Below the pieces are notes generated by a model, which searched no databases, was not told where the DNA came from, and was given only the letters and a program-made list of their open reading frames with translations. From the NCBI GenBank assembly GCA_963716725.1, contig CAVQUB010000002.1, positions 256,001 through 320,000 on the forward strand: a stretch of 64,000 nucleotides of DNA, given 5' to 3'. The position numbers and the translations under genes were made by a program. This DNA is from an uncultured delta proteobacterium. GTDB lineage: Bacteria > Myxococcota_A > Polyangia > Polyangiales > Polyangiaceae. Below, one piece after another: positions 23,310 to 60,081 of the stretch. Numbering within the stretch: the stretch's first letter is position 1; the number at the start of each line of letters is the position of its first letter.

Positions 23310-24148
23310 CTAGCCGAGCACGCGGTGCCTCAGGCTCGGGAGATTCGCCCTCACCCGCGCGAGCACCTGCGGATCCAACTCGGCGAGCGCGACGCCCGCG
23401 CCGTCGGAGGCCTCGGCGATGACCGTGCCCCAAGGATCGGCCACCAAGGAGTGACCGTAGGTCGTGCGTCCCTTGGGGTGAGACCCCCACTGCGCCGCGG
23501 CGACCACGAAGCACTGTGCCTCGATGGCTCGCGCGCGCAGCAGCACGTGCCAGTGATCCTTGCCCGTCAAGAGCGTGAAGGCCGCGGGCACCAGCAGCAC
23601 CTCGGCGCCGCGATCGGCGAGCGCGCGATACAGCTCGGGGAAGCGCAGGTCGTAGCAGATGCTGAGACCGAGCTTGTACCCGAGCACGTCCACCACCACC
23701 GGCTCGCGCCCGGCGGTGGTGGCCACCGACTCGCTGATCTCGCTGCCGTCGGGCAAGCGCACGTCGAAGAGGTGGATCTTGCGGTAGCTGCCCAGGAGTT
23801 CGCCTCTGGATCCGATACACAGCGCAGAGTGTTGAAGGGGCGCTCTGGATCGCCGCTCTGCTCGGGAAAGCCACCGGCGACGAGCACCACCTTGCTGTCG
23901 CGCGCCATCTCGGAGAGCGCGCGCTGGATCGGCGCCGCGCCCTCACCCAGCTCCTCGGCCAGGCTCCGCTTGTCGGCCTCGGGGCCCATGAACGCGAAGT
24001 TCTCGGGCAGGAGCACCACCTGGGCGCCGCGCTGGGCCGCGTGGCGTACCCAGTGCCCGCAGCGCTCGAGGTTGTCGCCCACCTCTTCCTGGCTCTGGAG
24101 TTGCACCGCGGCGATTCGCAGCGGCTCCCTCGCGTTGGTCCCGGTCAT
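23310..24148 (-). CDS. Carbon-nitrogen hydrolase (Nit1 / deaminated-glutathione amidase-like), frameshifted near 23800-23830
   Basis: [53 protein letters not shown]. Confidence 0.88.
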
Positions 24149-26504: not shown

Positions 26505-29188
<2,684 letters not shown>

Positions 29189-29206
29189 CGGGACGAGGCA
29201 ACTCCG

Positions 29207-32417
<3,211 letters not shown>

Positions 32418-32446
32418 ACGGGCGCGCTGGAAAGGTTTTGGTCGCG

Positions 32447-33199
32447 ATGTCGCCAGCGCCGCGCACGCGAAAGAAGGCTCCTCGCACGGATCGCTCGAAG
32501 TCAGGTGCCGCCAAAGGGGTGGTGCCCGCGTTCGATCTGCTCTGTCGCCAGCATCCCGACGCGCACTGCGAGCTCGAACACGCCGATCCCTTCCAACTCG
32601 TGGTGGCCACGGTGCTCTCGGCCCAAGCCACCGACGTCGGCGTCAACAAGGTCACGCCCGAGCTGTTCCGGCGCTGGCCCAACCCGGCGGCGCTGGCCGG
32701 CGCCAAACCCGCCGAGGTCGAGCAGGTGATCGGCAGCCTGGGCTTCTTCCGTCAGAAGACCAAGAGCATCACCGGCCTCGCGCAGCGCTTGATGGCCGAT
32801 CACGGCGGCCAAGTGCCACGCACGCTGACCGAGCTGACCCAGTTGCCCGGTGTCGGACGAAAAACGGCCAACGTCGTGCTCGGCGTGGCCTTCGGCGCGC
32901 CCGAGGGGGTGGTGGTCGACACCCACGTGCTCCGGCTCTCGCAGCGCCTGGGCTGGAGCAAGCACGACACGCCCGAGAAGGTCGAGCTCGACTTGATGCA
33001 GCTCTTGCCGCGTGAGCACTGGGACCGCGTCTCGCACACGCTGATCTTCCACGGTCGGCGTGTCTGCTCGGCGCGCAAGCCAGCGTGCGCGGCCTGCAGC
33101 GTCAGCGAGCTGTGCCCGAGCGCGTTCGCGGCCGAAGCGGTCGGTCGCAAACCGCCACGGGTGCGCGCCGACACCGGAAAGAAGCAGACCAAGAAATGA
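32447..33199 (+). CDS. nth: Endonuclease III
   Basis: LSAQATD, LPGVGRKTANVVL HhH, VDTHV, CSARKPACAACSVSELC 4Fe-4S motif. Confidence 0.95.
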   Translation: MSPAPRTRKKAPRTDRSKSGAAKGVVPAFDLLCRQHPDAHCELEHADPFQLVVATVLSAQATDVGVNKVTPELFRRWPNPAALAGAKPAEVEQVIGSLGFFRQKTKSITGLAQRLMADHGGQVPRTLTELTQLPGVGRKTANVVLGVAFGAPEGVVVDTHVLRLSQRLGWSKHDTPEKVELDLMQLLPREHWDRVSHTLIFHGRRVCSARKPACAACSVSELCPSAFAAEAVGRKPPRVRADTGKKQTKK

Positions 33200-34435
33200 C
33201 GACCGTCGCCCGCATCGAGCTGTTCCACGTCGCGGTCCCGCTGCCGGCCACCTTTCGGCCCAGCTGGATCCCCGGATTCCCGCAGAATGAGAACCGGTTC
33301 ACGCTGGTCAGGATCACGACCGACGACGGCATCGAGGGATACAGCGCCGGGCCCAGCATGGGCCACGAACGCTCGGGGCTGGGCGAGTTGGTCGGCCCGT
33401 ACCTGATCGGCGCCGACGCCACCGACATCGATCTGGTGCAACAGCGCCTGCGAGAGATGAGCTACCTCGGGTGGCGCAACTGGTGGATCGAGCCCGCGTT
33501 CTGGGACATCTTGGGCAAGCTCGCGCACAAGCCCGTGTACGAGCTGCTGGGCGGCAAGTCTCGCGAGGTGTCGCTCTACGCTTCGACGGGCGAGGTGAAG
33601 GAACCCGGCGCGCGCATCGCCGAGGCCGAGGCTCGCCTGGCCGAGGGATTCTCCGCCATCAAGCTGCGCGTCCACGACTTCGATCCTGCCGTGGACGAGC
33701 GGCAGGTGGTCGAGACCGCCAAGGCCATGGGCGGCCGCATGAAGATCGGCGTGGACGTGAACCAGGCTTGGCGCGTGACGGCCATCGGCCCGGCGCCGCT
33801 CTGGGATCTCGCGCGCGCCAAGCGCTTCGCCGACGTCTGCGCTGATTCGGGCTTGGCGTGGGTCGAGGAGCCTCTGCCGATGGACGCCTACGACGACCTC
33901 TCCGAGCTCACGCGCGTACAGCCGCGTCCCCATCAGCGGCGCGGAGCTCCACACCCAAGGGCTGCCTGAGCTGCGCATGATGATCGAGCGACGCTGCTAC
34001 TCGATCTTCCAACCCGACGCGATCTTCACCGGTGGCATCGCGCAGACGTTGGAGGTCGCGCGACTCGCCAAGCAGGCCGGCCTGATCTACACGCCGCACA
34101 CCTGGACCAACGGCATCGGCTTCGCGGTGAACCTTCAGCTCTATCTGGCGACGGACTCCCAGAAGGAACTCGAGTATCCGCTGAACCCTCCAGGGTGGGT
34201 GCCGGAGGCTCGGGACGGCCTGCTCGAGACGGCATTCCTACACCGTCGGGGCAAGCTCGAGCCCCCGACCTTGCCCGGGCTCGGCTTCCGGATCGATCCG
34301 CGCGCGCTCGCTCGGCACGGCAAGCGCTTCTTCGTGATGGACAAGAAACGCCTGGTCTGGTTCTCGCTCCGCAGCCGAGGGCTCAAGGCGTCCCTCGAGA
34401 TCGACAAGGCCCGCAAGGCGGCGGCGCGCAGCTGA
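33196..34435 (+). CDS. Mandelate racemase / muconate lactonizing enzyme (enolase superfamily) protein, frameshift near 33915
   Basis: WDILGK..PVYELLGG, KLR, DVNQ, EEP, GAE, QPDA, HTW; ATGA overlap with nth. Confidence 0.85.
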
Positions 34436-34499
34436 CCGAGCACCGGCCCTCGGTGCCGCACCGGGTGCCGCTCTGCCACCAAGAGCTGAAAGGCCTCAC

Positions 34500-35054
34500 C
34501 TAGTCTCCCAGCAGCTTGCGCACCTTGTCGAGCAGCTCCTTCACCTTGAACGGCTTGACGATGTAACCGCGGGCGCCCACCTGGATGCCGTGCACGATGT
34601 CGGCCGGGGAGTCTCGAGCCGTGATGAACAAGATCGGAATGCGCCGGGCGCGGGGCACGAGCTTCAAGCGCTGCGCCACGCCAAAGCCGTCGAATCCCGG
34701 CATCATCACGTCGAGCAGCACCAGCTGCGGTGGGGGCTCCGCGGTCGCCTGCGCAAACGCTTGCGGACCGTCTTTCGCCCAGCTCACCTCGTAGTCGGGC
34801 TCCAACATCCGGACCAGCAACTTCGCGATGGCGGCATCGTCGTCGGCAACCACGATTCGCTTCCGCGGCGGCGGCGGCGGCGGTTTCTTGCTGACCGGCG
34901 ACCCCGGGGCCTTCGAGAGCCTCCTCGACGGACGCTTCGACGAGGTCGCCTTCGACGGGGTCGCCTTCGACGCCGAAGGCCTGGCCGGAGCTTTGGACGG
35001 CGTGCTCCTCGGGCGCAGCGACTTGCGACCCGGCGGCGCCTTCGAAGCTGGCAT
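34500..35054 (-). CDS. Single-domain response regulator with a Lys/Pro/Ser-rich N-terminal extension
   Basis: VADDD, LLDVMMPGFDG, FITAR, YIVKPF. Confidence 0.88.
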   Translation of the reverse strand: MPASKAPPGRKSLRPRSTPSKAPARPSASKATPSKATSSKRPSRRLSKAPGSPVSKKPPPPPPRKRIVVADDDAAIAKLLVRMLEPDYEVSWAKDGPQAFAQATAEPPPQLVLLDVMMPGFDGFGVAQRLKLVPRARRIPILFITARDSPADIVHGIQVGARGYIVKPFKVKELLDKVRKLLGD

Positions 35055-35154
35055 CGTCCCCTTGTACGTTTCGAAAGTGAGGGTCGCAAGCGTCCTGTCG
35101 GACGGTCGCCCCTCGACGCTTCCCTTCGCCGGCGCGCCTCGCTAAAACGCCGAG

Positions 35155-36402
35155 GTGTTCCTCGGTTATTCGTGCCGCCGCTGCAACGCCGAGCTTGGTC
35201 CCGACGAGGCGACCTACCGCTGCCCCCGCTGCTCCGGCAACCTCGACGTTCGCTGCGACATCGCCCAGACCGACCGCGACCGCATCGCCCAGAGCCGCGA
35301 CCCTTCCCTTTGGCGATACGCGCCCCTCTTGCCGGTGCCCGTGGCGGCCGACGACGCCGGGCCGCTTCGAGGCGTCGGTGGCACACCGCTCTATTGCGCG
35401 CCGCGGCTCGCGCAAGAGTTCGGACTCGGCCGCGTCTGGCTCAAGGACGAAGGTCGCATGCCCACCGGCTCGCTCAAAGATCGCGCGAGCGCGGTGGTGG
35501 TGCAGCGAGCAAGAGCCCTCGGCCTGAGTCCGATCATCACGGCGTCCACCGGGAACGCCGGAGTGGCGCTGGCCGCCATGGCGCCCTGTGCGGGCATCGC
35601 TGCGGTTATTTTGGTTCCCGCGAGCGCGCCGCCCGCCAAGTTGGCGCAGCTCCAGGTGTTCGGCGCGCAGCTGGTGCTAGTGCGCGGCAGCTACGACGAC
35701 GCCTTCGATCTGAGTGAAGCCGCGGCTCGCGAGTTCGGCTGGTACTGCCGCAACACGGCCCAGAACCCCTTCACCACCGAGGGCAAGAAGACAGTCTCCT
35801 TCGAGATCGCCGAACAGCTCGGCTGGCGCGCGCCCGATCGGGTGTTCGTCTCCGTCGGCGATGGCAACATCTTGGTCGGCGTGCACAAAGGCTTTAGCGA
35901 GCTGTTGGCCCTGGGCTTCATCGACCGCATGCCCAAGATCATGGGAGTGCAGGCCGAGGGCTCTTCGCCCATCGCCCGCGCCTTCCTCGCAGGCAGTGAT
36001 CGCATCGAGCCCTGCCAGACGAACACGCTGGCCGACAGCATCGCGGCTGGACGCCCGGCGGACGGCGAGCGCGCGTTGGCAGCGGTGCGCGAAACAGGCG
36101 GCGCGTTCGTCATCGTCAGCGATGACCAGATCTTGGAGGCGATCCCGAAGTTGGGGCGCGCCGCGCAAGTCTTCGCGGAGCCCGCGGCCGCAGCAGCTTA
36201 CGCGGGCCTCGAGGCCCTCGCCCGAGCCGGCGAGCTCGCCTCCGACGAAGAGGTCGTCGTGCTCGTCACCGGCACCGGCCTGAAAGACGTCGGCGCGGCG
36301 ATGCGTGCCGTTCCGGGCGCCCCACCCAGCATCGAGCCCTCGCTTTCGGCCCTCCGGGACGTACTATCCGTGGTTCCGCCCACCCAAGAAAGACAGCCAT
36401 GA
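35155..36402 (+). CDS. thrC: Threonine synthase-like PLP enzyme (fold type II)
   Basis: N-terminal CxxC..CxxC, PTGSLKDRAS (PLP Lys), ASTGNAG, EGKKT, EPAAAAA, TGTGLKD. Operon context suggests a catabolic role, so the symbol denotes family only. Confidence 0.8.
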   Translation: MFLGYSCRRCNAELGPDEATYRCPRCSGNLDVRCDIAQTDRDRIAQSRDPSLWRYAPLLPVPVAADDAGPLRGVGGTPLYCAPRLAQEFGLGRVWLKDEGRMPTGSLKDRASAVVVQRARALGLSPIITASTGNAGVALAAMAPCAGIAAVILVPASAPPAKLAQLQVFGAQLVLVRGSYDDAFDLSEAAAREFGWYCRNTAQNPFTTEGKKTVSFEIAEQLGWRAPDRVFVSVGDGNILVGVHKGFSELLALGFIDRMPKIMGVQAEGSSPIARAFLAGSDRIEPCQTNTLADSIAAGRPADGERALAAVRETGGAFVIVSDDQILEAIPKLGRAAQVFAEPAAAAAYAGLEALARAGELASDEEVVVLVTGTGLKDVGAAMRAVPGAPPSIEPSLSALRDVLSVVPPTQERQP

Positions 36403-37858
36403 TCGACCTGACCGTGAACGAAGCCGGCCTCGCCAAGGCCGTGCAGCGCGCAAAAGAGAAGAACGTCGTCATCCCGACGCTGGCGCAGATGGTCGATCCC
36501 AAGCAGATCCCCGCGAAGGTCGTGGCGAACCTGAGAGACATCGGCCTCTGGGACCTGAACCCGGCCAACCTGTTCCGGATCGGCTGGCACAACGATCCGG
36601 TGGAGAAGGGTGGCGGCTTCGGCCGCGTGAACTACGTCGAGCTGCCCAGCGCCCTCACGGGGGTCGAAGCACGCATCATCGCGCTGGTCGGCAAGTGGTT
36701 CCCCACTGGCGCCCACAAGGTCGGTGCCGCCTTCGGCTGCCTCGCGCCGCGCCTCGTGACCGGCCAGTTCGATCCGACCTCGCAGAAGGCCGTCTGGCCC
36801 TCCACCGGCAACTACTGCCGCGGCGGTGCCTACGACTCCGCGCTGCTCGGCTGCGAGTCCATCGCGATCTTGCCCGAGGGCATGAGCAAGGAGCGCTTCG
36901 AGTGGCTCTCGAAGGTGGCCGGCGAGGTGATCAAGACTCCTGGCACCGAGAGCAACGTGAAGGAGATCTTCGACAAGTGCTGGGAGCTCCGCCGCTCCGG
37001 CCAATCGCTGATGATCTTCAACCAGTTCGAGGAGCTGGGGAACTACCTCTGGCACCACGAGGTCACCGGCCGCGCCATGGCCGAGGTGCTCGAGCACGAG
37101 CTCGGACCCAAGGGCCGCTTTGCCGGGCTCGCCGTCACCACCGGCTCCGCCGGCACCATCGCGGCCGGCGATTTCCTCAAGAAGCAGTTCTCCGGCAGCA
37201 AGATCGCCGCCAGCGAAGCCGCCCAGTGCCCGACGCTCTTGGCCAACGGCTTCGGCGAACACCGCATCGAGGGCATCGGCGACAAACACGTGCCCTGGAT
37301 CCACAACGTCAAGAACACCGATCTGGTGATTGCCGTCGACGACGAGGCGAGCGTCTCTGCCATTCGACTGTTCAACGAGCCCGCGGGCAAGAAGCACCTG
37401 GCCGGTCGTGGACTCGAACCGGCGTTGATCGAGAAGCTTTCGCTGCTGGGGATCTCCGGTGCGGCCAACCTGATCTCCGCCATCAAGATGGCCAAGTGGT
37501 ACGAGCTCGGGCGCGAGAGCGTGGTGATGACCGTGCTCACTGATTCCGTGGAAATGTACCGCAGTCGCCTCGCCGAGCTGAACGCGGAGCGCGGAGCGTT
37601 CACCGAGGTGGACGCGGCGGTCGCCCACGAACGCCACATCTTGGGCGCCGGCACCGACCTGATGGAGGAGCTGAGCTACCCCGCGCGCAAGCGCGTTCAC
37701 AACTTGAAGTACTACACCTGGGTCGAACAACAGGGCAAGACGCACGCCGAAATCCAGGAGCAGTGGCACGACGACGAGTACTGGACGGGGATCCCCGAGG
37801 TCGCGCCCAAGCTCGACGAGCTGATCGTCGAGTTCAACGCGCGCACGGGGCTCGGCTG

Positions 37859-37859
<1 letters not shown>
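36399..37859 (+). CDS. PLP-dependent enzyme (cysteine synthase-like beta family) of the type found in Se-molybdenum hydroxylase clusters
   Basis: FPTGAHKVGA (PLP Lys), PSTGNYCRGG, GSAGT, HRIEGIGDKH, GISGAAN; ATGA overlap with the upstream gene. Confidence 0.8.
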
Positions 37860-40485
<2,626 letters not shown>

Positions 40486-40495
<10 letters not shown>

Positions 40496-41715
40496 GCGGC
40501 CCCCGTCCCTTGTTCCTGGATGCAGGCGACAGCTCCGCCCTGATCACCGGCGGAGTGGTGGCGGCCTTCGGCCCGCACGCCCGCGCGAGTGACGACGCAA
40601 GAGTGATCGACTGCCGCGGCATGTCGGTCCGTCCTGGCGCCGTCAACGCGCACACGCACTTGTACAGCGGCCTCGCTCCGCTGGGCATGCCCGCGCCGGA
40701 GCCGCCGCCAGAGAGCTTCGTGCAAATCTTGGAACGCGTCTGGTGGCGACTCGATCGGGCGCTCGACGCCGCGTCGCTCCGCGCCGCCGCCGAGCTCTAC
40801 ATCGCCGAGGCGCTGCTCGCAGGCACCACGACGCTGATCGATCACCACGAGTCGCCGAGCTTCATTTCAGGCTCTCTCGAACTGCTCGCTGATGCCGCCC
40901 AGACTCTGGGCTGTCGCCTGGCCACGGGCTACGGCGCGACCGATCGCAACCGGGGCCCCGACGAAGGACGCCGAGGTCTCGACGAGTGCCAGCGCTTCGC
41001 TCGGGAAAACACCCGCCCGCTGGTCCGACCGCTAGCCGCGCTGCACGCCTCGTTCACCGTGAGCGACGACACGGTGATGCACGCCGGGAAGCTCGGCTTG
41101 CCGATGCACGTGCACGTGGCCGAAGATGCCGCCGACGTCGCCGACGCCAAGCAGCGCGGCTATGCCGGTCCGCTCCAGCGCCTGATGGCCCTGGGAGCCT
41201 TGCCCCCGGGTTCGATCCTCGCACACGGCGTGCACCTCAGCGAAGACGAGGTGCGGAGCGCCGATGGTGCCGGGCTCTGGTTGGTGCAAAGCCCGCGCTC
41301 CAACGCCGGCAATCGGGTCGGCTTCGCTCGCACCCTCGACGCTAGCTGCCACGTCGCCCTCGGCACCGACGGATACCCCGCAGACATGCGGGCCGAACGG
41401 GCGGCGCTCTTGACCGAGGCCCGAGGCGCGGGACACGTCATGGACGATGCGCTCGGCGCGGCACGCGCCCGCGGCGCCTACCCGCTGGCGTCCTCGCTCT
41501 TCGGTCTGAGGCTCGAGAGTGAAGTCGGCGCGGGGTGCGCGGCCGATCTGGTCGTCTGGCGTTCCCTCGACGACAACTCACCGCTCTACGTCGTGGTGGG
41601 AGGCGAGCTCGTCGTGGAAAGCGGGCGCCTTTGCCGCGGCGAGATCCAGCTCATTCGAAGCCGGGCCGCCGAGCAGGCGCCCTTGCTCTGGCAGCGCATG
41701 AAGGCCCTGCCATGA
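40486..41715 (+). CDS. SsnA-like metal-dependent amidohydrolase
   Basis: NAHTHLYSGLA, WWRLDRALD, GTTTLIDHHESP, LHASFTVSD, HVHVAE, AHGVHL, PRSNAGNRVG, LGTDG. Confidence 0.85.
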
Positions 41716-42980
41716 GTCGACTCTCCGTCGATTTCGATCGCCTCTACGCCTCCCTCACCACGCTGGGCGAGATCGGCGCGTACCAGGACACACGCACGGG
41801 TCTCAGCGGCGTGAGTCGCCTTGCTCTCACGGCCGCCGACGGCGCCGGGCGACGCCACGTGGTCGAGCAGATGAACTCCCTTGGGCTCTCGGTGAGCGTT
41901 GACCGAATCGGGAATGTGTTTGCCCGGCGGGAAGGCCTCCGCCCCGAGCTTTCGCCGGTGATGATGGGGTCGCACATCGACTCGGTCGAGACGGCGGGAC
42001 GCTTTGACGGTTGTCTGGGAGTGCTCGGCGGCCTCGAGGTGATCGCGACCCTGAACGATCACGGCGTGCGAACCGCGCGCCCCGTGCTGGTCGCCTTCTT
42101 CACCGACGAGGAGGGCTCGCGCTTTGGCACGGACATGCTGGGCAGCGCCGTCGCGACCGGGCGGCTGTCGCTCGATGAGGCCTACGGTCTCCGGGACAAG
42201 CGAGGGCTCGTGCTGCGCGACGAGCTCGAGTCCATCGGGTTTCTCGGCGACGCATGCGAGCGGATGGCCCCGCCGCATGCCTATCTCGAGTGCCACATCG
42301 AGCAGGGCCCGGTGCTCGCGTCCCGCGCTGTCGAGCTGGGCGTCGTCACCGGGGTGCAGGCCATCAGCTGGCACGAGCTCACCATCGTTGGCAAGAGCGC
42401 CCACGCGGGCACTACGCCCATGGGCCTGCGCGCCGATCCGGCGGTGGCCGCGGCGCGCATCGCGCTCTTCATGCGCGAGATGGCCACTTCGGGTCGCTAC
42501 GGCGATGGCATGCGAACGACGATGGGCTCGATCATCCCGCGACCCGGGTTGGTCAACGTCGTGCCCGCCGAGGTGGTGTGCACGGTGGATCTTCGAAACC
42601 CGGATGACGCTCATATGCGGCGCGCCGAGACGGATCTCATCGGGTACTACGCCGAAGTCGAGAAACTCGAAGGGGTGAAACTGAGCTGGCGCCAGACCGC
42701 GCGCACCGACACCGTGACCTTCGCAGAGGGCGTGCAGGACCGCATCGAGGCCGCCGCCAAAGCCCGAGGCCTCTCGACGGCTCGAATCGTCTCGGGCGCC
42801 GGCCACGACGCCCAAGAGCTGTCGCGCATCGCGCCGGCCGGCATGATCTTCGTTCCCGGTGAGCACGATGGCATCAGCCACAACCCTCGCGAGCTCTCGA
42901 CCCGGGAGCAGTGTGGCAACGGCGTGAACGTGCTTCTGGACGTCCTCACCAGCTTCGCCAACGAGGAGACCCCAGCATGA
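41712..42980 (+). CDS. M20 Zn-dependent N-carbamoyl-amino-acid / allantoate amidohydrolase family enzyme
   Basis: [43 protein letters not shown]. Confidence 0.9.
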
Positions 42981-43921
42981 CAGCTGCTCGCGTGGTTCGC
43001 GTCGCAGTGACTGAGACGCGGAATGCCTTTGCCGACATGCCCGCGAGTGTGGGCGAGCTCGAGCAGCTCGAGGGCCGACTGGAGCAGTTGCGCGCGGCAA
43101 ACGTGGAGCACCACGTCGATCTCATGCGCGCCGCCCGGGCCCAAGGCGTGCAAATCATCGGCTTCGGCGAGCTCTTCGCTGGCCCGTACTTCGCCCTCGG
43201 TAAGAACCCGCTCTGGTTTGCCCTGGCCGAAGATGCGCGGGTCGGTCCGACGGTGACGAGGCTGTCGGCGGCCGCCAAAGAGCTCGGACTGATCGTGGTC
43301 GCTCCCATCTACGAGCGGGACCCCTCCGGCCAGCGCTTCAACACGGCCGTGGTCATCGACGAACGCGGCGCGGTGCTCGGCAAGTACCGCAAGACCCATC
43401 TGCCCTGCGGCGAGAACGAGCAAGGCGCCTTCGACGAGCCCTTCTACTACGACAAGAGCGACGGTCGGAACGGCGCGGGCGAAGCCGTCGTCTCCGAGAA
43501 CCCGTTTTTTCCCGTCTTCCAAACTTCCCTCGGCCGCATCGGCGTCGCCATCTGCTACGACCGCCACTTCGACTGCGTGATGCCCTCGCTGGCTCGCGAG
43601 GGCGCCGAGTTGGTGTTCGCTCCCGCCGTCACCTTCGGACAGAAGAGCCAGCGCATGTGGCACCTCGAGTTCCAAGTCGATGCCGCACGGCACAACCTCT
43701 TCATTGCGGGGTCGAATCGGCGCGGCAGTGAGCCGCCCTGGGACCAACCGTACTTCGGCGAGAGCCACATCGCGGGGCCGAACGGCGTGCTGCCGAACCT
43801 GAGCTCGCACAAAGACCTGATCGTCGCCGACGTCGCCCTCGACGAGCTGTCGAGACCCGACCCCTCGGGTTGGGATCTGCCGCGAGACGTGCGCTACGAC
43901 ATCTACTCGAAGCGCGGGTGA
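42977..43921 (+). CDS. Nitrilase-superfamily amidase, beta-ureidopropionase-like
   Basis: Glu-Lys-Cys triad in [16 protein letters not shown] and ICYDRHF; ATGA overlap. Confidence 0.8.
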
Positions 43922-43941
43922 GGGTCGAACAGCGGCGGCCC

Positions 43942-45975
43942 TCAAACGCTGACGTAGCTCACGCCGCTCTGCTCGAGCACGCTCCGACCGAGCAGCGCCA
44001 TGAGCCGTAAGTAGGTGAGGTCCACCTCGCCGCTGGCAGTGCCCCTGAGCCCGTCTGCCGGTGTGGCCTCGGCACAGGCGAGGTCGAAGCCCTCGCCCCG
44101 GTAGCGCGCGAGACCGTCCTCGAAGGTCGCGCTGAAGTCCTGGCCTCGAAAGCGAGCGAGCACCGCGAAGCCCGCTTCGGTCTTCTCGACGAAGAATCCG
44201 TCACGGCTGCGGTGCAGCTCGAACTGCTCGCGGCTGCCGAAGAAGCGCGGCTTGAGCAGGTAGGGCCCGCCGTCTTCCGGGCAAAAGACGTCGCAGTTGC
44301 CGCACTCGTTGCAGAAGTCCGCAAAGTTCGCCAGCTGGTGCTTCTTCTCGACGCTGAGCTGACCCTCGCAGCGGATCTGGAACAATCCGGAGGCGTCGCG
44401 CACCGCCTTTTCGATGGGGATCACCTGGCGCGGCAGCTCAAAGGTGAAGTTCGCGTCGTTGGGGCAGACCGGAACGCACTTGTCGCAGGTCAGGCAGTCG
44501 AAAAAGACCAGCAGCGAGCCGACCTTCTTGGGAGACTTGTTGTTGGCGGCGCGCGTGTAGCGAGCGTCGACCAAGAGCTGCTCGAGGTAGTCGCGCGTAT
44601 TTTCCAGCTTCGCTTCCGAGACCCAGCGCGCCCAGAGTTCGGAGCCGGCGGCCGCTCGGAGATCTCCGCCGTCGGCCAAGGCTCGACGGCATGCGGCGTT
44701 CTCGCCGCCGCCGGCTCGCGAAAGGGTCAGCTCGGCGTTGCCCCGACCACGAACCACGAGGTCTTCGATGGTCCTGGCCTGCACGGCGTCCATGCGGACT
44801 CCAAGCTCACGGAAGTACCCGTCGAGCCGGGCGTAGCCCCCAGTGCGCAGCAGATCGGTGCAGACCGTCACGGGTACGAGTCCGAGGCAGACCGCGTCGG
44901 GGAAGTTCTTGGCGTCGATGCCCGCAGAGAAGGAGATCGGGAAGCGGTCGCCGAAAGTGTCCCGGAAGCGCCCCACCAAGCTCATCGCCAGTACGTGGAG
45001 CGGCTGACCGGACAGGTACATCACCTTCTCGGAGGGAGGGAAGAAACTCCGCTCGTTCTGGACGATCAGCGTGTTGCTGAACTTCACGCCGAAACCGCGC
45101 CCCAGCTTGTCGGCCTTGTCGCCCAGGCGGCCCACGAGCGCGACGGCCTGCTCCCAGCTCGCGTCTTTCTCGAAGGCTTCGTCGGGCGCGTGATCCGCGT
45201 AGCCCAGCACCTCGTTCAGCAACCGCCGAACCTCGGACTTGCCGAGCAGCGTCGGGTTGAGCTTCACGATGCAGTGCAGCCCGACCTCTTCCAGCAAGAA
45301 CGCCGTGATGCGCTCGATCTCGCCGGGTGGGCAGCCGTGAAAAGTCGAGAGCGTGAGCGTGTCGGAGAGCCGAGTGCGAAACTCGAGATCGCGGTATTGC
45401 GACAGTTCGGACGGTATCTGACGGCGCAGACGCTCCACGACCTCCTTCGCGTCCATCATGCCTCCGAGGAAGGCCCGCACGCGCTCGCTCTGAATGCCAG
45501 CGAGGTCGTAGCCGACGCTCATGTCGAAGATCACGCGGTCGAAGCCCGGGTCGAGATCGAGCTTGCCGCTGGCGATCAGGATCTCGACCAGCATCGAGGC
45601 CTTCACGTACTCCTCCAGCGACTGCTCGAGCGTCAGCTCCTGAGACCACTCGACGTTGTAGCCGATGGTCTCGGCGTCGATGCAGGGGCGGGGGATCTGC
45701 AGGCGATCCATGATTTGGACGGTCTTCAGCTCGAAGATCCTGCCGCCGCCCAGGAACGAGAGCACGATGTTCTGCGCCAGCTGAGAGTGGGGGCCGGCGG
45801 CGGGCCCGAGCGGCGACGAGGCGGTGTGGCCGTGGAAATTCACGGACAAGTCCTTGCCCGGCAGGCCGCGCACCATCTTCTTCTGGGGCAGATGGAAGAT
45901 GGACTGTTCGGTCTCGATCTGGCTCAGCGCCCGCGTCAGGAGACGTGCGAAGGGATACGGAACGAGCTCGGCCAC
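43942..45975 (-). CDS. YgfK-like oxidoreductase: FMN/DHODH-like barrel plus 2x[4Fe-4S], lacking the central FAD/NADPH module
   Basis: GPAAGPHSQLAQNI..GGRIFELKTVQ, RPCID..YNVEWS, LSTFHGCPP.EIE, KLNPTLLG, GVKFSNTL, MYLSG, CTDLL..GGY, then CLTCDKCVPVCP and CNECGNCDVFCP. The start could be 45999. Confidence 0.82.
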   Translation of the reverse strand: MAELVPYPFARLLTRALSQIETEQSIFHLPQKKMVRGLPGKDLSVNFHGHTASSPLGPAAGPHSQLAQNIVLSFLGGGRIFELKTVQIMDRLQIPRPCIDAETIGYNVEWSQELTLEQSLEEYVKASMLVEILIASGKLDLDPGFDRVIFDMSVGYDLAGIQSERVRAFLGGMMDAKEVVERLRRQIPSELSQYRDLEFRTRLSDTLTLSTFHGCPPGEIERITAFLLEEVGLHCIVKLNPTLLGKSEVRRLLNEVLGYADHAPDEAFEKDASWEQAVALVGRLGDKADKLGRGFGVKFSNTLIVQNERSFFPPSEKVMYLSGQPLHVLAMSLVGRFRDTFGDRFPISFSAGIDAKNFPDAVCLGLVPVTVCTDLLRTGGYARLDGYFRELGVRMDAVQARTIEDLVVRGRGNAELTLSRAGGGENAACRRALADGGDLRAAAGSELWARWVSEAKLENTRDYLEQLLVDARYTRAANNKSPKKVGSLLVFFDCLTCDKCVPVCPNDANFTFELPRQVIPIEKAVRDASGLFQIRCEGQLSVEKKHQLANFADFCNECGNCDVFCPEDGGPYLLKPRFFGSREQFELHRSRDGFFVEKTEAGFAVLARFRGQDFSATFEDGLARYRGEGFDLACAEATPADGLRGTASGEVDLTYLRLMALLGRSVLEQSGVSYVSV

Positions 45976-45995
45976 GGTGGCCGGATGATAGCCTG

Positions 45996-47015
45996 TCAAC
46001 GGCCCGCGCGGAACTTGCCGATCAGCTCTTCCGAAGCTGTGTACGGGTCGGTCTCGCGGCGCGCAATGCGTCCGGCGGCCGCTTCGACCTCGTCGCCGAG
46101 TTCAGCGAGGGCTTCTTCGGCGAGTGCGTCGCGCAAGAACGACAGCATCACGAGGTTCATGCGCTCCGCGCGCCGGGCGCGCCCCGCGTCGCTGTCGAGC
46201 CAGGCGCGGTGTTCACGGAGCTTCTGTTCGAGCTCATCGACGCCCGTGCCCCGGGTCGCCACCGTCTTCACGATGGCCGGCGTCCAGCCCGCGCTCGTTG
46301 CGCCGGACTCGGCTCGAGCGTTCGCGGTAACGCCGCTGTGGCCCCGGGATTTGGACGCGGAGACAGAGAACAAATCGCCGCTCAGCGCCAGCATCACTTC
46401 GAGATCGCGCACCGTAGCGTCAGCGCCATCTCGGTCGGCCTTGTTGACGGCGAAGACGTCGGCGCACTCGAGGATGCCCGCCTTGATGGCTTGCACGTCG
46501 TCACCGAGGCCTGGCGCCATCACCACCAAGGTGGTGTGTGCCATGCGGGTGACGTCCAGTTCGTCTTGTCCCACGCCAACCGTCTCGACGATCACCACCT
46601 CGGCGCCCCAGGCGTCGAGGATCCGGCTCATGTCGCTGGCGGACCGCGAAAGCCCCCCCAGCGCGCCGCGGGTGGCTACCGAGCGAATGAAGACCTCGGG
46701 GTCCTCGAAGTGCCGCTGCATCCGGATGCGGTCGCCGAGGATCGCGCCTCCAGAAAACGGGCTGGTGGGGTCCACCGCAACCACCCCGACGCGATGACCC
46801 GCTCTGCGCAGGCGCACGACCAACTGATCGGTGAGCGTGCTCTTGCCGGCGCCCGGCGTCCCGGTGACGCCGATCAGCCAGGCATGCCCGCTGTGGGGGT
46901 AGAGCTCCTTCATCAGCTCGCGATGGCCGGGCAGCCGATCGTCGACCGCGCGGCAGGCGCGCGCCGCGGCGAGGGTATTCCCCGAGAGCACGCGCGCGGC
47001 AAGCTCACTCGGCAT
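45996..47015 (-). CDS. meaB: MeaB/ArgK family GTPase (copy 1)
   Basis: GTPGAGKST, VDPTSPFSGGAILGDRIRM, ETVGVGQ, GDDVQAIKAG, NKAD. Confidence 0.92.
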   Translation of the reverse strand: MPSELAARVLSGNTLAAARACRAVDDRLPGHRELMKELYPHSGHAWLIGVTGTPGAGKSTLTDQLVVRLRRAGHRVGVVAVDPTSPFSGGAILGDRIRMQRHFEDPEVFIRSVATRGALGGLSRSASDMSRILDAWGAEVVIVETVGVGQDELDVTRMAHTTLVVMAPGLGDDVQAIKAGILECADVFAVNKADRDGADATVRDLEVMLALSGDLFSVSASKSRGHSGVTANARAESGATSAGWTPAIVKTVATRGTGVDELEQKLREHRAWLDSDAGRARRAERMNLVMLSFLRDALAEEALAELGDEVEAAAGRIARRETDPYTASEELIGKFRAGR

Positions 47016-56873: not shown

Positions 56874-57857
56874 TCAGCTCGACCGAAACACCTCGAGCAG
56901 TCGCCGTGCACCCTCGGTCGGCGTGATGCTACCGCTCTGAACCAGCGCCTCGATGGCCGGACCCGCGCTCTTCACGCCGGGGTCATCCCACAACTCCGCC
57001 GCGAGCGCCTCGCGCACCAAGCCCGAGAGCCAGTGCTTTCGTTGCGCACTTCGGCGCTCCTCGAGGGCGCCGCTCAACTGGAGAAAGCGGCGATGCTCTT
57101 CCAAAAGCGCCCAGACCTCCTCGATGCCGCGCGCCTCGATCGCGCTGACGGTAGTGACCCGCGGCACCCACGGCGAGCCGTCACCGCGCAAGAGTCGGAG
57201 CGCGCTTCGATACTCGGCCGCAGCGCGCTCCCCGCGCTGGCGCTCGGCACCGTCGGCCTTGTTGATGGCGATCACGTCGACGAGCTCCAGAATTCCGCGC
57301 TTGATGCCCTGCAGCTCGTCACCGGCGCCCGCGAGGGCCAGGAGCAAAAACGAGTCGACCATGCTCGCCACCAGATGCTCGCTCTGCCCGACCCCCACCG
57401 TCTCGACCAAGACCACATCGAAACCAGCGGCCTCGCACACGAGCAGGGCTTCGCGCGTGTGGCGCCCGACGCCTCCAAAGGCGCCCGCCGCCGGGCTGGG
57501 GCGAATGAACGCGGCCTCTGCGGCCGAGAGCCGCGACATGCGCGTCTTGTCCCCGAGGATGCTGCCGCCCGACACCGAGCTCGAAGGGTCCACCGCGAGC
57601 ACCGCCACCCGATGCCCTGAGGCGATCAGGAACAAGCCCAGCGCCTCGATGAAGGTGCTCTTGCCCGCGCCTGGGACCCCGCTCACGCCGATTCGGGCGG
57701 CGTTGCCGGTCTGGGGCAGGATGCGTTCGAGGAGCCGCTGGGCGGCGTCGTGGTGATCGCTGCGCCTCGACTCGACGAGCGTGATCGCCTTGCCGATGGC
57801 CCGGCGCTCGCTCGCGAGCACCCCCCGAGCCAGCTCCTCGATCTCGTCGGGGCTCAC
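56874..57857 (-). CDS. meaB: MeaB/ArgK family GTPase (copy 2)
   Basis: GVPGAGKST, VDPSSSVSGGSILGDKTRM, ETVGVGQSE, GDELQGIKRG, NKADG. Confidence 0.93.
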   Translation of the reverse strand: MSPDEIEELARGVLASERRAIGKAITLVESRRSDHHDAAQRLLERILPQTGNAARIGVSGVPGAGKSTFIEALGLFLIASGHRVAVLAVDPSSSVSGGSILGDKTRMSRLSAAEAAFIRPSPAAGAFGGVGRHTREALLVCEAAGFDVVLVETVGVGQSEHLVASMVDSFLLLALAGAGDELQGIKRGILELVDVIAINKADGAERQRGERAAAEYRSALRLLRGDGSPWVPRVTTVSAIEARGIEEVWALLEEHRRFLQLSGALEERRSAQRKHWLSGLVREALAAELWDDPGVKSAGPAIEALVQSGSITPTEGARRLLEVFRSS

Positions 57858-57863
57858 GGCGCC

Positions 57864-60014
57864 TCAGCGTGCGCGGCGCGCCTCGATGGCGCCCAGCACT
57901 CGATCCGCCGACACCGGCACGGCGGTGCCGGGACCGAAGACCGCCGCCACACCGGCCGCTTCCAGGGCCGGGTAGTCCTGCGCGGGGATCACTCCGCCAC
58001 ACACCACGATCACGTCCTCGGATCCCGCGCGCCGAAGCTCGTCGATGAGCTCCGGCACCAAGGTCAGATGACCCGCGGCTTGCGTGGAGACTCCGATGGC
58101 GTGCACGTCGTTCTCGATGGCCTGACGGGCGACCTCGGCCGGTGTCTGGAAGAGCGGTCCGACGTCGACGTCGAAGCCGGCGTCGGCAAACGCAGTAGCG
58201 ATGAGCTTCGCGCCGCGATCGTGGCCGTCCTGCCCCATCTTGGCCACCAAGATGCGCGGGCGCCGACCCTCGGCCTTCAGAAACTGCTCGATGCGTTCGC
58301 GCAGCGCTCCCCACTTCGCGTCATCCCGATAGTAGCTGCCGTACACGCCCGCGATGCTGCGCGTCTCGGCCTGGTGGCGGCCCCAGGCTGCCTCGAGCGC
58401 GTCCGAGATCTCGCCGACGCTGGCCCGGGCGCGCGCCGCCGCGACGCTGAGCTCGAGCAGATTGCCCTGACCCGCCTCGGCGGCTTTCCGCAGCGCGCCG
58501 AGGGCGTGCTCGAGCGCCTCTCCGTCCCGCGCCTTGCGGACGGTCTCCAGGCGGGCGATCTGCGACGCTCGCACCGCGGTGTTGTCCACGACCCGGACCT
58601 CGACCGGCTCTTCGTGCGCGGCTTGGTACTTGTTCACGCCGACCACGACGTCGTTGCCACGATCGACGCGCGCCTGCCGGCGGGCCGCTGCTTCTTCAAT
58701 GCGCAGCTTGGGCATGCCCGCCTCGACGGCGCGCGTCATGCCACCGAGCTTCTCGACCTCGTCGATGAGCGCGAGCGCCTTTCCGGCGAGGGCGTGCGTC
58801 AGGTGCTCCATGAAATAGCTGCCCGCCCAGGGATCGACCACGCGGGGGATACCGGTCTCGTGCTGGATCACCAGCTGCGTATTGCGGGCGATGCGCGCGG
58901 CGAAGTCACTGGGCAGCGCCATCGCCTCGTCGAAGGAGTTGGTGTGCAGGCTCTGGGTCCCGCCGAGCACCGCCGCCATGGCCTCGATGGTGGTGCGGAT
59001 CACGTTGTTGTGGGGATCTTGCTCGGTGAGGCTGACGCCGCTGGTCTGACAGTGCGTGCGCAGCAGCATCGAATCGGGGTTCTTGGGGCCAAAGTGGCGC
59101 TTGATTAGGGTGGCCCAGAGCAGCCGCGCTGCCCGGAGCTTGGCCACCTCCATGTAGAAGCTCATGCCGATGCCGAAGAAGAACGACAGCCGCGGCGCGA
59201 AGCTGTCGATGTCGAGGCCCTTGGCCAGCGCGGCGCGCACGTACTCGAGGCCGTCGGCGAGCGTGAACGCCAGCTCCAGATCTGCCGTCGCCCCGGCCTC
59301 TTGCATGTGATAGCCCGAGATCGAAATCGAGTTGAAGCGCGGCATCTGTCGCGCCGTGTATTCGATCACGTCGGCGACGATCCGCATCGAGGGCGCCGGC
59401 GGATAGATGTAGGTGTTGCGGACCATGAACTCCTTCAGAATGTCGTTCTGAATGGTCCCGGTCAGCTCCCCGGGTTTCACGCCCTGCTCCTCGCCGGCCA
59501 CGATGAACATGGCCAAGATGGGCAGCACAGCGCCGTTCATCGTCATCGACACGCTCATCTCTCGGAGCGGGATGCCGTCGAAGAGGATCTTCATGTCCTC
59601 GACGGTGTCGATGGCAACGCCTGCCTTGCCGACGTCGCCGACCACGCGCGGGTGATCGCTGTCGTAGCCGCGATGGGTGGGCAGATCGAAGGCGACACTG
59701 AGGCCCTTCTGGCCTCCAGCCAGACCTCGGCGATAAAACGCGTTGGACTCTTCGGCGGTGGAGAAGCCCGCGTATTGGCGGATGGTCCAGGGACGTCCGG
59801 CGTACATGGTCGCTTTGGGCCCGCGAACGAAGGGGTAGTCACCCGGGATGCTGTCCCCGAAGTCGAGCCCCTCGAGGTCCTGTCGAGTGTAGAGCGGCTT
59901 CACGTCGATGCCCTCGGGCGTGTGCCAGACCAGGGTCTCGGGATCTTTGCCTTTGAGCTCGCCGGTCGCGAGCCGAGTCCAGTGGCTGAGGTCAGCGCTC
60001 TGCTTCGGATCCAT
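57864..60014 (-). CDS. scpA: Methylmalonyl-CoA mutase (B12-dependent)
   Basis: [50 protein letters not shown]12-binding motif. Confidence 0.96.
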
Positions 60015-60081
60015 GGCGCAGACTTTTAGCACCGAACGCCTGGCGGTGGACGTTCCCCCGCTCGTGCCTTATCCCTCGACC

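Follow-up and report, generated by a model that had tools for sequence, protein, structure and literature searches.

What pathway is encoded by a myxobacterial gene cluster in which relatives of reductive purine-degrading enzymes stand beside two hydrolases and two enzymes dependent on pyridoxal phosphate (PLP)? The cluster in question (positions 35155-45999) lies in a 64,000-nucleotide stretch of the uncultured genome GCA_963716725.1 (contig CAVQUB010000002.1), which is referred to here as the window and corresponds to G000:C2:256001-320000. The genome measures 7.9 Mb in 35 contigs with 68% G+C and is about 84% complete by estimate. Seven genes make up the cluster: a ThrC-like enzyme, a second fold-II PLP enzyme named PLP2, a molybdenum hydroxylase of the xanthine dehydrogenase (XDH) family, an SsnA-like amidohydrolase, an M20-family amidase, a nitrilase-superfamily hydrolase and, convergent to these six, a short form of YgfK. 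A previous interpretation of the letters alone (the sequence-only reading) had taken them for a variant of the anaerobic urate pathway, and our Pfam and NCBIfam scans returned the families that it had named (Table 1).

The reductive urate pathway was worked out in 2025 and, in the available text of the two preprints concerned, only in gut anaerobes (10.1101/2025.05.19.654654, 10.1101/2025.04.24.650524). As described there, urate is converted to 2,8-dioxopurine (XdhD/DOPDH), the ring is reduced (YgfK or UacX) and SsnA yields ureidomethyl-hydantoin; the roles of the E. coli core enzymes XDH, YgfK and SsnA were shown in vitro. Further down the route, HyuA gives 2,3-diureidopropionate, the ureido groups are taken off by YgeW (with carbamate kinase and a gain of ATP) and by YgeY, and YgeX turns 2,3-diaminopropionate into pyruvate. 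In the text available, the two preprints disagree on the order in which the ureido groups leave.

On balance we favour the view that the seven genes encode a myxobacterial version of this reductive uric-acid (2,8-dioxopurine) pathway, based on homology and on the displacement of genes across genomes. The TIGR03311-type molybdenum hydroxylase would dehydroxylate urate to 2,8-dioxopurine, the short YgfK would reduce the ring and the SsnA-like amidohydrolase would open the six-membered ring. Since both redox enzymes terminate in Fe-S clusters and lack a module for flavin adenine dinucleotide (FAD) and NAD(P)H, they would draw their electrons from a separate carrier. Opening of the hydantoin ring would probably fall to the genome's single D-hydantoinase/dihydropyrimidinase, acting in trans. 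The nitrilase-type and M20 enzymes would then hydrolyse both ureido groups of 2,3-diureidopropionate to NH3 and CO2, ATP being forgone, and the ThrC-like enzyme, PLP2 or both would convert 2,3-diaminopropionate (or beta-ureido-alanine) to pyruvate and ammonia.

Displacement of the carbamoyltransferase branch

Genes of the canonical pathway were searched for in five genomes of the genus (G000, G001, G002, G003 and G005), among which G002 is 97% complete in 5 contigs. None of the five carries ygeW over the cut-off (best score about 30 bits) or ygeY, whose best score of 112 bits against a cut-off of 321.5 comes from another genome position. The carbamate kinase gene arcC is missing from the same five and from two further genomes of the genus (0/7). 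Only in G000 does dpaL exceed its cut-off of 276 (310.5 bits, on contig C28 among unrelated genes), with none in the four others. A full ygeW/ygeY/ygeX/arcC set was therefore not found anywhere in these genomes. A tblastn search of the genome with the canonical-cluster proteins gave the same picture of gene content as the profile searches. At E<=1e-8, no homolog of ygeW, ygeY, ygeX, arcC or the hydantoinase lies on the window's contig, which extends to the whole contig an absence that the sequence-only reading had noted for the window. Furthermore, when twelve E. coli cluster proteins, among them YgeY and YgeX, were compared by blastp at 1e-3, none matched the M20 enzyme, the nitrilase or PLP2; the M20 amidase is not YgeY.

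The whole cluster is syntenic in G001-G005, that is, in five of the six other genomes of the genus, and the side with AccC, MeaB and YgfK is included in this conservation. The sole genome of the genus in which the cluster was not found is G006, which is 73% complete. In one of the syntenic genomes, G001, about 3 kb are inserted between XDH and SsnA (L031 5496-7553), with genes for a Uma2-family endonuclease and a cNMP-binding protein.

Outside the genus, the phylum was sampled with 401 Myxococcota genomes (YgfK at E<=1e-40, YgeW-like genes at E<=1e-100, nitrilase at E<=1e-60). A YgfK homolog is present in 71 genomes and 52 of 254 genera; its open frame mostly spans 600-750 aa and exceeds 1000 aa in 7 genomes only, and the short form is the usual one in Myxococcota. 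YgeW-like genes occur in 56 genomes, 16 of them over the cut-off. The nitrilase is rarer, with 13 genomes from 8 genera. YgfK accompanies it in all 13 and a YgeW-like gene in none; of the 71 YgfK genomes, 36 carry a YgeW-like gene. Among ten nitrilase loci outside the genus, eight lie beside XDH, SsnA, PLP2, M20 or YgfK.

The genome G009, from a different genus of the same family, shows the arrangement in which the carbamoyltransferase branch is kept. It encodes XDH, SsnA, PLP2 and a further PLP enzyme ('PLP3') in this order and, on the other strand, YgeW (526.5 bits, cut-off 500), a YgeY 53% identical to a canonical one and a short YgfK; carbamate kinase is found on another contig. We also counted genes around 68 YgfK-centred loci outside the genus, taking about 10 kb on each side or up to the contig end. 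SsnA occurs in 31 of these loci, PLP2 in 21, XDH in 16, YgeW and YgeY in 15 each, arcC in 11, and PLP3 and an adjacent GltD module in 9 each. The M20 carbamoylase type was seen in 3, the nitrilase and a ThrC-like gene in 2 each, and DpaL in none. From G009 and these counts, the usual Myxococcota form consists of a short YgfK, XDH-SsnA-PLP2-PLP3 and YgeW-YgeY-arcC, and the window's genus carries a derived form with M20 and nitrilase in place of YgeW, YgeY and arcC. The central proposal of the sequence-only reading, a reductive purine cluster with hydrolases where the carbamoyltransferase is expected, is supported by this pattern, both by G009 and by the lack of any co-occurrence in 401 genomes. 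Its expectation of a cluster conserved in relatives agrees with the synteny within the genus and with the related clusters in the sister genus and the phylum.

A smaller cluster was noticed in one other Myxococcota family (L134 3425-10881 in G223; also L132, L133 and L136). It combines a beta-eliminating lyase (a fold-I PLP enzyme), XDH, a protein with a protoglobin domain, M20 and nitrilase; neither SsnA nor YgfK adjoins it.

The D-hydantoinase/dihydropyrimidinase exceeds its cut-off in all five genus genomes, unlinked to the cluster and among unrelated genes. In G000 it is a single gene (C5:518593-519951, 586 bits, cut-off 393.25), and E. coli HyuA shares 38% identity with the ortholog from G002. 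All eight cluster-bearing relatives have such a gene over the cut-off, versus 9 of 33 others; the suggested role in trans follows from this co-occurrence, which is one among related genomes. The sequence-only reading, which had noted the lack of a hydantoinase in the window, offered no explanation for this step. About 37 kb from this orphan gene, G000 carries a second nitrilase-like gene (C5:555799-558955), 39% identical to that of the cluster, read in two frames and adjoining an M20 gene with weak YgeY similarity.

Enzymes of the cluster

The XDH-family enzyme combines two [2Fe-2S] clusters with a molybdenum cofactor domain and has no FAD subunit. A second XDH-family locus of the genome, on contig C21, has no recognisable purine genes around it. 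The short YgfK consists of the YgfK N-terminal domain and a ferredoxin domain for two [4Fe-4S] clusters, with two CxxCxxCxxxCP motifs; it has no GltD-like FAD/NAD(P)H module. It matches the 1012-position model TIGR03315 at positions 5-397 and 910-984 only, positions 398-909 being absent. Consistently, blastp aligns it with E. coli YgfK at 41% identity over residues 7-405 and 32% over residues 904-979. Identity to the forms in other Myxococcota is 46-64%. A profile search of the short-YgfK alignment against PDB sequences returned weak matches to the ferredoxin motifs (E>=0.06) and none for the N-terminal 400 residues. The label 'YgfK-like' given by the sequence-only reading therefore holds for the homologous N-terminal domain, but the protein is a short form without the NAD(P)H/FAD module. 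The SsnA-like protein aligns with E. coli SsnA at 34% identity over residues 43-441 (full length), contains the HTH metal motif and is encoded in a single frame in all orthologs.

Both hydrolases have ureidohydrolases as their nearest solved relatives, as judged from alignment scores. The M20 amidase exceeds the TIGR01879 cut-off and reaches 413.4 bits with NF006769 (cut-off 452). Its nearest solved relative is an N-carbamoyl-beta-alanine amidohydrolase (8c46, 276 bits), in the company of the L-carbamoylases 8apz and 3n5f (these named relatives spanning 261-276 bits); yeast beta-alanine synthase (228 bits) and allantoate amidohydrolase (160 bits) follow. L-carbamoylases are L-specific. The nitrilase is nearest to animal beta-ureidopropionases (6ftq/8pt4, 108 bits) and to an N-carbamoylputrescine amidohydrolase (5h8i, 105 bits), with D-carbamoylases at about 45-52 bits.

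The ThrC-like enzyme exceeds the cut-off of TIGR00260 (205.8 bits, cut-off 167) and falls just short with NF006050 (298.3 bits, cut-off 303). It bears an N-terminal CxxC...CxxC zinc ribbon, and its nearest solved structure is the threonine synthase 2zsj (193 bits). A second thrC-like gene on contig C11 is 29% identical; the cluster copy is thus not the single thrC of the genome but a paralog of the housekeeping gene. PLP2 is more remote from known families, with 94.9 bits for the cysK model against a cut-off of 351 and a cysteine synthase as best PDB match (72 bits only). The lysine of an AHKV motif and a STGNY loop are invariant in the four sequences compared; by analogy with CysK enzymes, we take the former to bind PLP and the latter to be the carboxylate loop.

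PLP2 was searched for with an alignment pattern over species-representative genomes, which gave 597 matching stretches, and the locus counts below refer to the best 80 of these 597. These 80 loci come from other phyla and show 64-72% identity over the best segment; PLP2 in Myxococcota loci outside the genus shows 39-51%. The best 80 belong mostly to Chloroflexota, and also to Desulfobacterales/Desulfobacteraceae, Deltaproteobacteria, Actinomycetota, Terriglobia, SAR324, Bacillota and one Polyangiaceae metagenome-assembled genome (MAG). Six PLP2 loci were annotated with NCBIfam. In five, PLP2 has SsnA as a neighbour, along with further genes assigned to the purine pathway (Se-type XDH or XdhABC, YgfK, YgeW, YgeY, HyuA, carbamate kinase, adenine/guanine deaminases); the sixth, L089, has only a carbamoyltransferase, carbamate kinase, an ABC transporter and a ThrC-like gene. 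PLP2 thus belongs to an uncharacterised, highly conserved family that many phyla have in their purine clusters.

Across the 80 loci, a ThrC-like gene occurs in 49 and DpaL in 2, never both, which is consistent with a ThrC-like enzyme standing in for YgeX. Carbamate kinase is present in 32, a carbamoyltransferase resembling ornithine carbamoyltransferase (OTC-like) in 29 and a HyuA-like gene in 28; neither the M20 carbamoylase type nor the nitrilase was found in any of the 80. The terminal lyase would be the second PLP enzyme, which varies between loci (ThrC-like, PLP3 or DpaL), and PLP2 would perform a constant, undescribed step. In that step the 3-ureido group of albizziin could be replaced or undergo direct beta-elimination; the handling of a D/L-diaminopropionate pool is another possibility. 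A broader proposal is offered only tentatively: PLP2 with a changeable partner (ThrC-like, PLP3, DpaL or beta-eliminating lyase) might define an undescribed step of reductive purine degradation in many phyla, and the Myxococcota pathway without NAD(P)H modules or YqeB/YqeC might be a urate route of respiring cells.

The protein Atlas gives PLP2 generic names only. The terms 'threonine synthase' and 'cysteine synthase' are absent from the texts of both preprints, and a literature search combining ssnA, threonine synthase and purine returned nothing related. As far as the available text goes, one of the two preprints (10.1101/2025.05.19.654654, 10.1101/2025.04.24.650524) counts any PF00291 gene of the neighbourhood as YgeX. 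In Chloroflexota, a recurrent operon was observed (L089, L054, L068, L072, L087, L090) with an OTC-like carbamoyltransferase, carbamate kinase, a PnrA-like nucleoside-binding ABC transporter, ThrC-like, PLP2 and HyuA-like genes. XDH and SsnA are often not close to it, and it resembles a free-standing lower half of the pathway.

Alternative readings and related systems

Several observations weigh against a reductive urate pathway in this genus. At the upper end of the pathway, the SsnA-like protein fails its family cut-offs (NF005540 243.3 bits versus 444; TIGR03314 232.1 versus 455.5), the short YgfK remains below the TIGR03315 cut-off of 835.3, and blastp gives the XDH (G002 copy) the same 30% identity to XdhD and to XdhA of E. 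coli (locus L138), which makes urate a putative substrate only. Neither yqeB nor yqeC was found in the five genus genomes. Both are carried by all published strains with the pathway, according to the available text of 10.1101/2025.04.24.650524. The 'Se-type' XDH of the sequence-only reading consequently stands as a family label, while the selenium trait is not borne out. On the other hand, selD is present in all five genomes (G000:C6:227368-228291, with orthologs in G001, G002, G003 and G005), each with one in-frame TGA; these genes probably encode a selenocysteine-containing SelD, which would show selenium use in the genus.

Further points against it concern the lower half of the route. No hydantoinase is linked to any of the 68 YgfK-centred loci. 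In the available text of 10.1101/2025.04.24.650524, the known intermediates are (R)/D-configured, and the nearest relatives of the M20 enzyme are L-carbamoylases or beta-ureidopropionases. The alpha/beta assignment of the hydrolases is ambiguous for this reason: the sequence-only reading had M20 act on the 2-ureido and the nitrilase on the 3-ureido group, which fits the nearest solved relatives, but the reverse could hold as well. Two Bacillota loci combine PLP2 with a true DpaL, and elsewhere it accompanies YgeW and YgeY; it is therefore no simple substitute for any known step. Among the 71 YgfK genomes, 22 have neither nitrilase nor YgeW, and the Fisher test for mutual exclusion of the two within this set (p = 2.5e-5) is overstated because the compared genomes are related to one another. 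Lastly, no RNA run containing the cluster stretch was found among public sequencing runs.

The same enzyme types could instead degrade another N-heterocycle (xanthine directly, bases derived from 8-oxoguanine, pterins or another oxopurine), the XDH working oxidatively and passing electrons via Fe-S clusters to the short YgfK. Its even distance from XdhD and XdhA would suit such a role. In addition, residue E606, a feature proposed for XdhD, falls in an insertion missing from all TIGR03311-type enzymes compared; the two redox enzymes are devoid of NAD(P)H modules, the SsnA-like protein is divergent, and the smaller cluster with beta-eliminating lyase manages without SsnA or YgfK. We nevertheless regard this as unlikely, for the canonical purine cluster of the Bacillota locus L107 has a TIGR03311 enzyme (1334 bits) flanked by full-length YgfK and HyuA, and the sister Myxococcota clusters contain YgeW, YgeY and arcC, the lower urate pathway. 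Less probable still is reductive pyrimidine or hydantoin catabolism, in which the YgfK barrel would act as a dihydropyrimidine dehydrogenase analog, the orphan gene as dihydropyrimidinase and the hydrolases as beta-ureidopropionases or carbamoylases. The nearest relatives of both hydrolases agree with it, as does a dihydropyrimidinase in all five genomes, though tblastn found no dihydropyrimidine dehydrogenase (PreA/DPD) in G000 beyond PyrD. It would leave the conserved core of XDH, SsnA and two PLP enzymes without a role, and it is at odds with a nitrilase that excludes YgeW across the phylum and with a dihydropyrimidinase unlinked to the cluster.

That the cluster is dead in this strain, with real pseudogenising mutations in XDH, is very improbable, although the window sequence does read as broken. 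The XDH domains fall in three reading frames of the window assembly (Pfam, NCBIfam), and TIGR03311 matches in four pieces (442.7, 135.7, 217.1 and 32.4 bits, about 828 in sum, with a cut-off of 830.45). Nucleotide alignment with five same-genus orthologs places five private 1-nucleotide indels in the window copy, which has one base too many at each of 39143, 39189, 39511 and 40411 and lacks one at 40257. All six orthologs examined are read in a single frame, and intact copies exceed the cut-off (932.9 bits in G002, 892.8 bits in G009). Public contigs from four metagenome runs (X1, X3, X7, X8) of four studies (biofilter, two wastewater, groundwater) were aligned on window positions 37800-40600, stretches without cover not being counted as evidence. 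The contigs of X1, X3 and X7 leave out a base at 39142, 39189 and 39514; X8 has no cover at 39142, and one low-depth X8 contig is the exception at 39189, where it lacks the difference. A base is put in behind 40258 in X1, X3 and X8, and every one of the four runs leaves one out at 40410. Over 38.9-40.6 kb, these contigs also carry 39-40 substitutions relative to the window in 1.1-1.7 kb, of which the listed ones fall mostly at 39.2-40.3 kb; a 455-base public contig from further upstream matches the window exactly. Being absent from the five orthologs and from the public contigs, the XDH indels are almost certainly assembly errors, and the gene would be intact in the organism.

Frame breaks are not confined to XDH, and the other six genes of the cluster are intact. 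As tblastn frame changes undercount frameshifts, broken genes were measured by the ratio of the longest open frame. The syntenic G002 region supplies orthologs for 34 window genes, of which five have no open frame over 90% of the length: a bamA-like gene, gyrA, MR_MLE, XDH and a P-type ATPase gene. gyrA is ordinarily essential, and its break therefore favours a consensus error.

With a reductive urate pathway retained as the favoured reading, the cluster can be compared with known systems. It shares with the pathway of E. coli (ygeW-ygeX-ygeY-hyuA-yqeA ... ygfK-ssnA-ygfM-xdhD) and C. sporogenes an XDH-family hydroxylase, the YgfK N-domain, an SsnA-like amidohydrolase, the expected C3 intermediates with two ureido groups and a terminal PLP enzyme. 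In contrast, YgeW, YgeY, YgeX, carbamate kinase, YgfM and HyuA are missing from the cluster, YqeB/YqeC from the genus and the FAD/NAD(P)H module from YgfK; the cluster adds the M20 carbamoylase-type amidase, the nitrilase-type hydrolase, the ThrC-like enzyme and PLP2, and the host has heme-copper oxidases. The UacX/UacY variant of Clostridioides difficile, as far as described in the available text of 10.1101/2025.05.19.654654, has in common with it a reductase without FAD domain, an XDH without YgfM and a hydrolase in place of YgeW and carbamate kinase. However, the reductase here is a truncated YgfK, whereas UacX is PydA-like; UacY is of the D-aminoacylase type, unlike the nitrilase-type and M20 carbamoylase-type hydrolases of this cluster, in which YgeY and YgeX are replaced too.

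The PLP2 purine clusters of Myxococcota and Chloroflexota share PLP2, the XDH-SsnA-PLP2 order and, in other Myxococcota, the short YgfK, but most of them keep YgeW or an OTC-like enzyme, YgeY and carbamate kinase, with PLP3 as a different second PLP enzyme. The combination of M20, nitrilase and ThrC-like enzyme belongs to this genus, and M20 with nitrilase recurs in a few other genera. The Pyd pathway and hydantoinase/carbamoylase systems also have a dihydropyrimidinase (here elsewhere in the genome) and ureidohydrolases of nitrilase and M20 types; here, the hydrolases stand in an operon with XDH and SsnA, and the dehydrogenase of the Pyd pathway was not found in G000.

A myxobacterial origin, as in the sequence-only reading, agrees with the MYXO-CTERM matches (45 in G000 and 61 in G002, versus 0 in 14 control genomes) and with the nitrilase homologs: among the 120 matches listed, identity is 64-99%, the named ones are mostly Myxococcota MAGs and the closest named ones are Polyangiaceae and Myxococcales MAGs. 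The word 'anaerobic' is more doubtful, because all seven genus genomes encode the heme-copper oxidase COX1. Uricase (PF01014) was not found in these seven genomes, and hydroxyisourate (HIU) hydrolase is absent from the six that bear the cluster, occurring only in G006, where the cluster was not detected. Near-identical DNA is present in biofilter, wastewater, groundwater and sediment metagenomes. A hydrolytic branch without ATP would make sense in an organism able to respire, and nitrogen scavenging from prey can be speculated upon.

As judged from homology and the displacement of genes, the cluster would be a conserved variant of a very recently described pathway. The word 'myxococc' is absent from the texts of both preprints, and neither mentions PLP2. 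Literature from 2023 onward on the pathway intermediates, taken by title and the start of the abstract, deals almost entirely with gut microbes or host disease, with no environmental or myxobacterial variant at that level. Family-based surveys would probably miss such clusters because the divergent SsnA scores below its cut-off. If the proposal is right, the pathway extends to a large environmental phylum, given the proportion of sampled Myxococcota with a YgfK homolog. The energy-conserving carbamoyl-phosphate branch would then appear as an exchangeable module, replaced by simple hydrolases in organisms capable of oxygen respiration, and PLP2 and the short YgfK without built-in electron-input module would become testable enzyme families.

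The locus and its neighbourhood

The sequence-only reading had described six plus-strand genes linked by overlapping stop and start codons and a convergent YgfK-like gene, and this layout was recovered for all seven. All five junctions overlap by 1-10 nucleotides, in the order ATGA, TGATG, GTG..TGA (10 nucleotides), ATGA and ATGA, and 20 nucleotides separate the stop of the short YgfK from that of the nitrilase. The nitrilase start is corrected from 42911 to the position in Table 1.

Table 1. Genes of the cluster, with positions in the window and supporting family matches
Gene product	Positions	Strand	Family evidence
ThrC-like fold-II PLP enzyme (415 aa)	35155-36402	+	PALP 263 bits
PLP2, cysteine-synthase/CBS-like fold-II PLP enzyme (486 aa)	36399-37859	+	PALP 57 bits
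XDH, molybdenum hydroxylase family TIGR03311	37859-40495	+	domains spread over three frames
SsnA-like amidohydrolase (~409 aa)	40486-41715	+	NF005540, TIGR03314 below cut-off
M20 hydantoinase/carbamoylase-family amidase (422 aa)	41712-42980	+	TIGR01879 376.8 bits (cut-off 204)
Nitrilase-superfamily hydrolase (314 aa)	42977-43921	+	CN_hydrolase 135.5 bits
Short YgfK (685 aa), convergent	43942-45999	-	TIGR03315 419.1 bits

Frame breaks accumulate over 26505-40495, where the bamA-like gene (26505-29160), gyrA (29710-32414), MR_MLE (33064-34432) and XDH are each split; most other window genes are intact. A CN_hydrolase frame at 23310-23942 (-) matches only model positions 93-255 and is probably another frame-broken gene. 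An Rfam scan of the 64-kb window gave no matches.

Two MeaB-type GTPases are encoded in the window. One (56874-57863, minus strand) adjoins methylmalonyl-CoA mutase (57864-60068). The other (45996-47015, minus strand) has accC on one side and the short YgfK on the other, sharing bases of its stop codon with the start of YgfK (TTGA); this arrangement is absent from G009, G184 and G423 and kept in G001-G005. Directly upstream of the ThrC-like gene, about 700 bases (34423-35134) have no counterpart in the syntenic G002 region and hold an open reading frame for a response regulator (34500-35141, minus strand).

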